Shown: positions 3,670 through 5,274, numbered from the stretch's first letter. The stretch is 64,000 bases of DNA from Escherichia coli (GCF_003334305.1 NZ_QOWS01000005.1); one strand, 5' to 3'. The notes: generated from the sequence alone by a model not told the origin. Numbers and translations are program-made.

Positions 3670-5274
3670 TTAATCAAACGAAAGACGCCGACGAGCACGG
3701 GATGCAGGCTTTACGACCGCCCGAGCCATCGCCTCACCAATTTCTGCACATGCCGTAAGTCCCTGAACGAAAGGCTGGTCGTGCATCAACCAGGGCAACG
3801 CGCCGAACGCTACGCGTCCACGAATATCTTCGGGTTGCTGTAACGTATAATCTTCGCCAACATCAGGGATTTCATCCCCTGTTTTCTGTAATTGCTCGCG
3901 TAGCCCAGGGAAAGGAATATCTTTCACTTTAAGCGGACGCTGTCCGCGGGCATCAATAAAAACGTCAAACGAGTAGCTGTTGTCTTCCGTTTTCAGGACG
4001 GTGCGCGACTCATTAATTTCCATTTTGTAGTCTTCACCGAGGGCGAGAATATGAATGATTCCCGCTTCACGTAAGGCAAGTAGGCGACGAATAGACTCTG
4101 AAGGGATTGCCGCATAATTATCGATGAAAACCCTGGCAAGGCCTTTACTGAACCGTTTATGGTCGTGTTCATTCAGATGAGGAACAATTTCCTGTACGGC
4201 TTCATGCAGGCGCAGAATGACATAACGCCAGGGAACAGTATGTTTTTCTCGTTTATTGCGTTCGACTTCCTGGAGATTTTTTTCTGCCCAGTCAAATGGG
4301 TCGCGTTGTTTGCGCTCGGCAAACCAGGCTTGAGCAAAGGAATCGACATTCAGGCTCTCTAAGGCTATGCGTTGGCTCCAGTCTGGATCAGCAAACTTGA
4401 TTTCCTCTACTATCAATCTAAATACCCGATCCAAAAGGCCCTCTTCACCTTTTTGAATCTCAGCATTTAATGCCTGATCGGTGACGATGTGTAAGGGCTC
4501 GTAGGGAATAGGGCAATAGAAATCGGCTTCGGGTAAAATACCCGTGCGCGACATCAACGTAATATTTAGCTTTTCACTTGCGTTATCGCGGTTAAAAACG
4601 ACGTGTTGTTTATCATCTTCAATGAACGAACCATGCTGAATAGCCACTGCCATTGCCGCATCCAGTCCGCTCAAGGATGTTCCCATAATACCCACGTTAC
4701 ACGCATCGACCTTTGCTTCCATCAGGCCTGACCACGGACTGGGAAAATACGTTCTGGTTGCTTCTTCTTCATCAGGCCAGACGTGACCCGTGGCAATCAC
4801 CGCTAAATCAAACGTCTCGCTGGGTAAATCCTGATTTGTAGCGAGCATGACGCCAGCATTTGTAATTTGCAGATCGGTAACCTGGCATGATTCATAAACA
4901 GCCACTGCAAATTTTTGCTGTCGTGCCTGGTCTACTAATCGTAAAAATTGATCGCGGAAATATTCGCCCAGCAGAATTCGCGGTAAAAACTGACGATCGT
5001 GCAAGGTTTCTTTTTTAACGCCATAACGCTGGAGATGGCTGGCTTCTTGCTTTTGTAGCCATTCGAGATACGTACAATTAATCGGCGGTATTTCAATACT
5101 GGCAATATTTGCCAGCATCATTTTTGAGTTTTCCTCATCACTGTATGGCATCCCGACACCGGCCTCGTCAGCCTGCTCGAAGATAGAAATAGAAAGTGGA
5201 GTTTGTTGCTGTAGAAGCGAGAATAAGGTGTAGATCCCCGTAGGCCCGGCACCCACAATAGCAATTTTTTTCAT
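3670..5274 (-). CDS. ydhS: FAD/NAD(P)-binding protein of unknown function YdhS
   Basis: ORF-track 534 aa; N-terminal Rossmann dinucleotide-binding motif IAIVGAGPTG. Confidence 0.85.
   Translation of the reverse strand: MKKIAIVGAGPTGIYTLFSLLQQQTPLSISIFEQADEAGVGMPYSDEENSKMMLANIASIEIPPINCTYLEWLQKQEASHLQRYGVKKETLHDRQFLPRILLGEYFRDQFLRLVDQARQQKFAVAVYESCQVTDLQITNAGVMLATNQDLPSETFDLAVIATGHVWPDEEEATRTYFPSPWSGLMEAKVDACNVGIMGTSLSGLDAAMAVAIQHGSFIEDDKQHVVFNRDNASEKLNITLMSRTGILPEADFYCPIPYEPLHIVTDQALNAEIQKGEEGLLDRVFRLIVEEIKFADPDWSQRIALESLNVDSFAQAWFAERKQRDPFDWAEKNLQEVERNKREKHTVPWRYVILRLHEAVQEIVPHLNEHDHKRFSKGLARVFIDNYAAIPSESIRRLLALREAGIIHILALGEDYKMEINESRTVLKTEDNSYSFDVFIDARGQRPLKVKDIPFPGLREQLQKTGDEIPDVGEDYTLQQPEDIRGRVAFGALPWLMHDQPFVQGLTACAEIGEAMARAVVKPASRARRRLSFD

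Follow-up and report, generated by a model that had tools for sequence, protein, structure and literature searches.

What does YdhS do, and does it act with a partner? Among the large and well-conserved 'y-genes' of Escherichia coli, ydhS belongs to those that still lack an assigned function. It is encoded on the minus strand of the 64,000-nucleotide (nt) stretch of E. coli DNA analysed here (GCF_003334305.1, NZ_QOWS01000005.1; in the following 'the window', with all positions counted from its first letter). An initial annotation, made from the sequence of the window alone, described a 534-residue product with an N-terminal Rossmann dinucleotide-binding motif, took it for a flavin-dependent oxidoreductase or monooxygenase and knew of no substrate. 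On the last point it agrees with the record: neither the searchable literature nor current RefSeq and NCBIfam naming gives a substrate or function for YdhS, and the string 'YDHS' in PMC3521201 was rejected as a gene mention, the symbol there denoting yield. The gene itself is already on record for E. coli, though uncharacterised. The reading that we prefer, and to which we give slightly better than an even chance, is that YdhS is a single-component class B flavoprotein monooxygenase, dependent on reduced nicotinamide adenine dinucleotide phosphate (NADPH) and O2, that oxygenates a heteroatom of a small metabolite. New here are this likely placement next to the L-aspartate N-hydroxylase FzmM, the independence of ydhS from its neighbour ydhR, an upstream promoter-like element that is conserved, and an association with catalase, DUF892 and MOSC genes that recurs in Alphaproteobacteria. 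The gene and the parts of its product that carry the argument are:

3670..5274, minus strand: ydhS coding sequence, 534 codons plus stop, ATG start; product of 60.7 kDa with an isoelectric point of 5.1
5236..5253, minus strand: G8-A-G-P-T-G13, predicted GxGxxG motif for flavin adenine dinucleotide (FAD) in the first Rossmann fold; G8 and G10 invariant in 85 relatives
5107..5109, minus strand: codon of Asn56 in the conserved motif MLANIASxEIPP; invariant in 85 of 85 relatives
4660..4692, minus strand: GIMGTSLSGLD, residues 195-205, putative second dinucleotide-binding motif (GxxGxSxSxxD), profile-aligned to the NADPH motif of flavin-containing monooxygenases (FMOs)
4063..4545, minus strand: all-helical domain, residues 244-404, between the two nucleotide-binding domains; presumed substrate domain

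Translation of the open reading frame from 5274 to 3670 yields a protein that starts with MKKIAIVGAGPTG. Its length and N-terminal motif are as first described, a description that is borne out by the reading frame, by GxGxxG at residues 8-13, by the NCBIfam equivalog NF007381, which spans YdhS end to end (1117 bits), and by Pfam PF13454 (NAD_binding_9) at residues 5-164 (E 3e-31). In the same Pfam scan PF07992 matched weakly and in the N-terminal part alone (E 6e-4), and PF13450 and PF01266 stayed below threshold. No transmembrane or hydrophobic segment is predicted anywhere in the protein, and as an acidic protein of this kind YdhS is probably soluble and cytoplasmic.

The evidence for the enzyme class comes from fold, motifs and conservation. 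A search of 1.84 billion representative proteins with YdhS returned 991 clusters at E<=1e-3 and 218 at E<=1e-30. Comparison of YdhS alone with PDB sequences (phmmer) gave only matches at the level of the GxGxxG motif. An alignment of 85 relatives, down to 24% identity (A1), served as input to an AlphaFold2 model, which has a mean predicted local distance difference test score (pLDDT) of 95.3 and a predicted template modelling score (pTM) of 0.93 and contains the two-Rossmann flavoprotein fold. Foldseek against the PDB placed FzmM at the top (8CP5/8CP2; E 1.6e-23, TM-score 0.74, 17% identity), followed by the ornithine N-hydroxylases KtzI, SidA and PvdA (E 1e-12 to 1e-10) and then by FMOs and Baeyer-Villiger monooxygenases (BVMOs). 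FzmM is the only solved structure in this search that shares the large helical domain of YdhS. The family profile of YdhS likewise finds FzmM, over residues 3-283 (E 7e-8), and FMOs (E 1e-10). Thus, the profile and structure searches that the initial annotation had proposed point to FzmM, N-hydroxylases and FMOs as closest relatives, and its guess of a flavin-dependent enzyme has narrowed to the class B flavoprotein monooxygenases. By its domain content YdhS is assigned to the PF13454/'YdhS' superfamily, which also takes in HpyO, a urate hydroxylase, and CreE/FzmM, which N-oxygenate L-aspartate.

Residue conservation follows the same lines. Invariant across the 85 relatives are G8, G10, N56, R99, G163, G198, G444 and P501, and at Y44, H164, S200, D205 and S242 conservation is 90% or more. 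HMMER aligns residues 195-205 to the NADPH motif of FMOs (GSSYSAEDV/GSSASAVDI), and the strand that follows this motif ends in a near-invariant S242-R243, with R243 being Arg in 67 of the 85 relatives and invariant among a subset of 26 closer ones (A2). The helical domain carries the family motifs SRxGxLPEADF, WRYAILRxHE and VFxDNYAAVP and the conserved basic residues R321 and R/K350. Asn56 sits 12 residues past the conserved aromatic Y44. FzmM has Trp51 stacked on its flavin and Asn62 over the C4a atom (PMC10404684), and by analogy we infer that Y44 and N56 are candidate equivalents of this pair in YdhS.

Likeness to the other oxygenase groups is narrower. The FMOs (bacterial Tmm/mFMO, yeast FMO, plant S-oxygenase) are the best sequence-profile matches in the PDB, at the E value given above, and share with YdhS a GxSxSAxD-type NADPH motif and an ATG(H) motif; this likeness is confined to the two nucleotide-binding motifs, and FMOs lack the helical domain. 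The N-hydroxylating monooxygenases of family PF13434 (SidA, PvdA, KtzI, DesB, lysine N6-monooxygenases) are located in siderophore clusters and have a small substrate domain that is not homologous to that of YdhS, which in turn has no PF13434 match.

A second line of evidence is the genomic context of the family outside the enteric bacteria. In a rough neighbour-joining tree the enterobacterial YdhS clade is nested in a far more diverse, largely alphaproteobacterial family, and a tblastn search of plasmids returned 51 records, mostly from Alphaproteobacteria, of which 16 annotated plasmid loci were examined. In 5 of these 16, an HPII-type catalase (913 bits with the NCBIfam HPII model) is encoded upstream of YdhS on the same strand. 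The two genes adjoin directly in three plasmids, from Brucella anthropi, Rhizobium ACO-34A and Sphingobium, with start and stop overlapping by 4 nt in the last; a BLUF gene lies between them in Sphingopyxis and an IS110 insertion sequence (IS) in Agrobacterium. Among alphaproteobacterial genome loci of the clade with 63-67% identity, the catalase is directly upstream in 9 of 9 that were fetched. Often the catalase is itself preceded by a DUF892/YciF-like protein of 165 residues (Pfam E 1e-62). The linkage spans YdhS copies that are 39-66% identical to that of E. coli, catalases that are 55-100% identical to each other, and three bacterial orders. Its members come from Brucella/Ochrobactrum, Rhizobium, Agrobacterium, Paracoccus, Sphingobium and Sphingopyxis (plasmid and genome loci L084, L086, L088, L090, L093, L051-L054, L057, L059, L068, L069 and L080). 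Where replicon and flanks are annotated, the modules are on plasmids, and IS6 or IS110 adjoins two of them. The catalase-YdhS set looks like a mobile stress module. Further neighbours on plasmids are three Hsp20 genes, PsiE, DUF892, DUF2171, treYZ/glgX, a BCCT transporter and a DJ-1/PfpI-type amidotransferase, which are typical stress genes, and in two Novosphingobium plasmids the gene layout indicates co-transcription of DUF1543 with YdhS. Six distant metagenome members (P0121, P0124, P0143, P0163, P0230, P0258) have variable, uninformative contexts, with some stress genes (YflT, lipocalin) around P0143 and no urate or lyase genes near any of the six.

In E. coli and Salmonella, expression of the DUF892 proteins (YciE/YciF) and of HPII (KatE) depends on sigma-S. 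The alphaproteobacterial context therefore agrees with regulatory hints from E. coli, and both point to a stationary-phase or general-stress role. Directly upstream of the gene we read two elements, the second of which belongs to these hints:

5280..5286, minus strand: AGGTAAG, a Shine-Dalgarno-like sequence that precedes the ydhS ATG by 5 nt, taken from the sequence itself
5318..5331, minus strand: TCAACCAAACTTAT, conserved promoter-like element upstream of ydhS, within the ydhR-ydhS spacer

We collected 80 orthologous ydhS loci from reference genomes and clustered their neighbouring reading frames; counts refer to 82 loci. In 31 of the 82 an element of 14-18 nt, gTTTTC(G/A/T)ACCA(C/A)ACTTAT, recurs at an identity of at least 60%, 27-178 nt upstream of the ydhS ATG, and it is kept regardless of which gene lies upstream. 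An exact match occurs once per 17-kb locus. In nine loci (L004-L006, L021, L023, L025, L026, L032, L041) it was seen about 50-95 nt upstream of ydhS. To judge from its letters, the element resembles a sigma-S extended -10 region (C-13, A-11, C-8, T-7, then TTA). Genomic systematic evolution of ligands by exponential enrichment (SELEX) with RpoS holoenzyme has a weak peak in the spacer between ydhR and ydhS (PMC5493296). EHEC (enterohaemorrhagic E. coli) grown with meat microbiota shows a two-fold increase of ydhS. The genes otsB, sra, ybaY, ymdF, fbaB and ecnB are sigma-S genes. Beside these six, ydhS is listed as increased 7- and 14-fold with a LolCDE inhibitor (PMC5105897). It is also among the 25 genes most repressed by azidothymidine (AZT), and its basal expression is SspA-dependent (PMC11228462). 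The literature search found no expression data from rpoS mutants for ydhS; from the above we infer RpoS dependence, and ydhS is probably a stand-alone gene under sigma-S control. Phenotypes have been described as well. A ydhS deletion is less susceptible to killing by the Agrobacterium type VI secretion system and is complemented in trans (PMC7012810), and a Klebsiella ydhS deletion has no lactic-acid tolerance phenotype. Cleavage of YdhS by Prc was seen in vitro only, and YdhS is predicted to be cytoplasmic.

How might such an enzyme work? FAD bound in the N-terminal GxGxxG Rossmann fold would be reduced by NADPH held at the GxSxSxxD fold. Bound NADP+ and the invariant Asn56 would stabilise the C4a-hydroperoxyflavin that the reduced flavin forms with O2. 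The helical domain would hold a small polar metabolite, and this substrate would receive one oxygen atom at a nucleophilic heteroatom, an amine nitrogen being the likeliest. The conserved basic residues R99, R243, R321 and R/K350 may favour an anionic substrate, and the analogy with FzmM hints in the same direction. YdhS would act alone, with no conserved operon partner, and would be expressed from its own promoter in the stationary-phase or general-stress (sigma-S) programme, while in Alphaproteobacteria its gene would have been wired into DUF892-HPII catalase stress modules.

Several points weigh against this reading. That YdhS binds FAD, uses NADPH and oxygenates a substrate is a prediction. 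A regular-expression search of YdhS found no FMO/BVMO fingerprint FxGxxxHxxx[Y/F/W], and a motif search found no LATGY motif of N-hydroxylases. Because N-hydroxylases also lack the fingerprint, its absence excludes the FMO and BVMO subclasses and not class B as a whole. Profiles of residues 228-534 (A4) and 28-128 (A5) gave zero matches in the PDB, FzmM included. In the regulatory part, the putative -10 region has C at position -12, which is usually T, and the RpoS SELEX peak at ydhS is weak, 3.8 against a cut-off of 3.0 (PMC5493296).

The alternative that survives best, unlikely as we consider it, is that YdhS is an NAD(P)H:acceptor reductase or oxidase and not an oxygenase. It could pass electrons to a molybdenum-cofactor N-hydroxylamine reductase of the MOSC type, reduce disulfides or quinones, or turn NADPH and O2 into H2O2 that the catalase would clear. 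MOSC-domain genes, whose products we take to be a family of N-hydroxylamine-reducing molybdoenzymes, do flank YdhS in five loci (L086, L087, L095, L096, L097) on plasmids of Rhizobiaceae and Pseudochrobactrum. Four of the five are convergent, most with overlapping 3' ends, and are not co-transcribed with YdhS; one is co-directional, and two of the convergent loci are clearly one island. No MOSC neighbour was found for any enterobacterial ydhS. The protein itself also speaks against a reductase. A motif search detected neither a redox-active cysteine pair (CxxxxC, CxxC) nor an iron-sulfur motif, and none of the five cysteines (67, 130, 192, 254, 509) is conserved in the family, so that YdhS differs from Bdr/YpdA-type bacillithiol disulfide reductases and thioredoxin-reductase-like flavoproteins, which have about 325 residues and no helical domain, also in lacking a conserved cysteine for thiol-disulfide function. 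The best fold matches, including the only one that covers the helical domain, are oxygenases, and Asn56, the candidate counterpart of FzmM Asn62, is invariant.

A further interpretation, quite improbable as a whole, takes the plasmid neighbourhoods at face value. The YdhS family might form an unrecognised group of general-stress flavin monooxygenases tied to the stationary-phase HPII catalase and DUF892, or else the flavin partner of the MOSC N-hydroxylamine reductases. In the first version, YdhS might oxygenate a stress metabolite while the catalase removes H2O2 from uncoupled turnover or supplies O2, and the chromosomal gene of enterobacteria and the plasmid copies of Alphaproteobacteria might be exchanged versions of one module. 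If the catalase or the MOSC link is functional, YdhS would be a new enzyme in bacterial oxidative or nitrogen-stress chemistry; otherwise it would be an ordinary orphan flavoenzyme. In the class B monooxygenase reading that we prefer, the class placement, the stand-alone and probably sigma-S-controlled gene and the recurrent linkage to catalase modules narrow the search for the YdhS substrate.

The characterised relatives offer two concrete substrates. UniProt and InterPro list the N-terminal domain that these proteins have in common as 'FAD-dependent urate hydroxylase HpyO/Asp monooxygenase CreE-like'. Accordingly, one characterised type of superfamily member carries out N-oxygenation and the other hydroxylates urate, each with FAD and NAD(P)H. 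This name is what suggests that YdhS could be isofunctional with HpyO from Xanthomonas, which uses FAD and NAD(P)H (PMC4562309), and C-hydroxylate urate or some other heteroaromatic substrate. The likeness to HpyO, compared here by domain and context and not by sequence, consists of the PF13454 N-terminal domain and this cofactor pair. In contrast to HpyO, ydhS has no urate-pathway neighbours. Genes for urate catabolism (HIU hydrolase, OHCU decarboxylase, allantoinase; urah, urad) stand beside it in none of about 100 loci. Klebsiella already has the urate hydroxylase HpxO, yet keeps a ydhS orthologue. E. coli K-12 is not known to oxidise urate in the presence of air, which also counts against this proposal, and we regard it as very unlikely.

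Even less probable is that YdhS is a true FzmM/CreE-type L-aspartate N-oxygenase making nitrosuccinate, and hence nitrite or 3-nitropropionate. What favours this is that FzmM is the closest solved structure and the only one to have, like YdhS, a large helical domain placed between those for FAD and NADPH, and that the YdhS family has conserved arginines. FzmM binds aspartate by the arginine cluster R13, R266, R276, R409, R412, N413, R416 and R577 (PMC10404684). The sequences, however, are only 17-18% identical, YdhS is about 65 residues shorter, and its helical and C-terminal parts are undetectable by sequence. Since the two partial profiles described above find nothing in the PDB, the arginine cluster cannot be mapped onto YdhS; at position 13, where FzmM has R13, the YdhS family has G or A. 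A profile of a distant subgroup (A3) and a single distant member (P0221) did not match FzmM in the PDB either. The biosynthetic clusters that house CreE/FzmM/AlnM always include a nitrosuccinate lyase (CreD/FzmL/AlnN) (PMC7347517). No such lyase was found around ydhS, be it in E. coli or at about 100 homologous loci, and ydhS lies outside any biosynthetic cluster, as an E. coli chromosomal core gene with a stress-type context. As the sequence of the helical domain matches nothing in the PDB and lyase and urate genes are missing nearby, YdhS is probably not an orthologue of FzmM/CreE or HpyO.

It remains to ask whether ydhS has a partner in E. coli itself. On the minus strand two tRNA-Val genes (5970-5813) are followed by ydhR (5705-5400) and then by ydhS (5274-3670), so that the order given in the initial annotation, with ydhS upstream of ydhR, is reversed. 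The neighbouring features are:

5970-5813, minus strand: valV/valW tRNA-Val(GAC) pair, upstream of ydhR
5400..5705, minus strand: ydhR, 101 residues, annotated 'monooxygenase'; upstream neighbour of ydhS and not a conserved partner
5369..5387, minus strand: terminator-like hairpin AAGGGCG-GUUAG-CGCCCUU followed by UUCAU, just downstream of the ydhR stop, separating ydhR from ydhS
2846..3658, plus strand: ydhT, last gene of the ydhYVWXUT cluster, convergent with ydhS

Across the orthologous loci there is no universally conserved neighbour. No neighbour family is common to more than 27 of the 82, and with no widely shared family ydhS behaves as a monocistronic gene. The commonest neighbour, a beta-carbonic anhydrase on the opposite strand (27 of 82), mirrors the synteny of the Enterobacter group, where mdtK, tRNA-Val and ydhS are followed by the convergent beta-carbonic anhydrase and a protein of metallo-beta-lactamase (MBL) fold; this is also the commonest arrangement. 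Only in Escherichia do ydhR and ydhS adjoin, and even there one member, Escherichia sp. L004, has no ydhR upstream of ydhS. In two Citrobacter loci ydhR lies 1-3 kb from ydhS; the remaining 82 orthologous loci examined have no ydhR within 8 kb. The hairpin after ydhR has a GC-rich stem of 7 bp with a folding free energy of -17 kcal/mol (z -3.5), none of 200 shuffled sequences folds as well, and a simple terminator scan missed it because of its short T-run. The functional link between the two genes that was implied at first is thus unsupported, given the hairpin, the separate upstream element and the narrow phylogenetic range of the adjacency, and coupling of ydhR to ydhS was rejected on synteny, hairpin and promoter-like element. 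That YdhS and the small YdhR act as a two-gene unit, as their common strand, their distance of 125 nt and their monooxygenase-like annotations might suggest, is barely plausible with a terminator-like hairpin, the conserved element and the RpoS-holoenzyme peak between them and an adjacency found in Escherichia only.

On its other side, ydhS converges with ydhT, the two stop codons being 11 nt apart (3659-3669), and the terminator scan revealed no obvious bidirectional terminator between them. The pair has been classed among 'excludons' with overlapping transcription (PMC12288877). A SELEX site of RcdA has been reported inside ydhT.

Within the species, a 3.6-kb ydhS query is 100% identical to E. 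coli chromosomes and matches 5,426 of 5,426 complete genomes, with at least 80% of the query covered in 5,392 of them. IS256-like or IS3 insertions split the gene in some strains (NZ_CP028747.1, NZ_CP148423.1), and many of the Shigella entries for YdhS in the AlphaFold database are truncated fragments of 300-430 residues. ydhS is a core yet dispensable gene that is decaying in Shigella.

Two minor observations concern the surroundings of the gene and the sample of loci. In the region, Rfam recognises as structured RNA only the two tRNA-Val genes and, at 5689-5851 on the plus strand, RF02194 'HPnc0260 bacterial antisense RNA' (112 bits against a gathering score of 59). This match runs antisense to one tRNA-Val gene (5813-5889) as well as to ydhR at its 5' end, and could be a real antisense transcript or reflect a family built on tRNA-antisense sequence. 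Among the collected loci, one labelled Chryseobacterium sp. 18061 (L044, CACSKA010000006.1) carries an enterobacterial-type ydhS with 66% identity, and its flanking gene families match those of Citrobacter sp. 18056 (L060) and Pluralibacter (L066); this assembly is probably mislabelled or contaminated.

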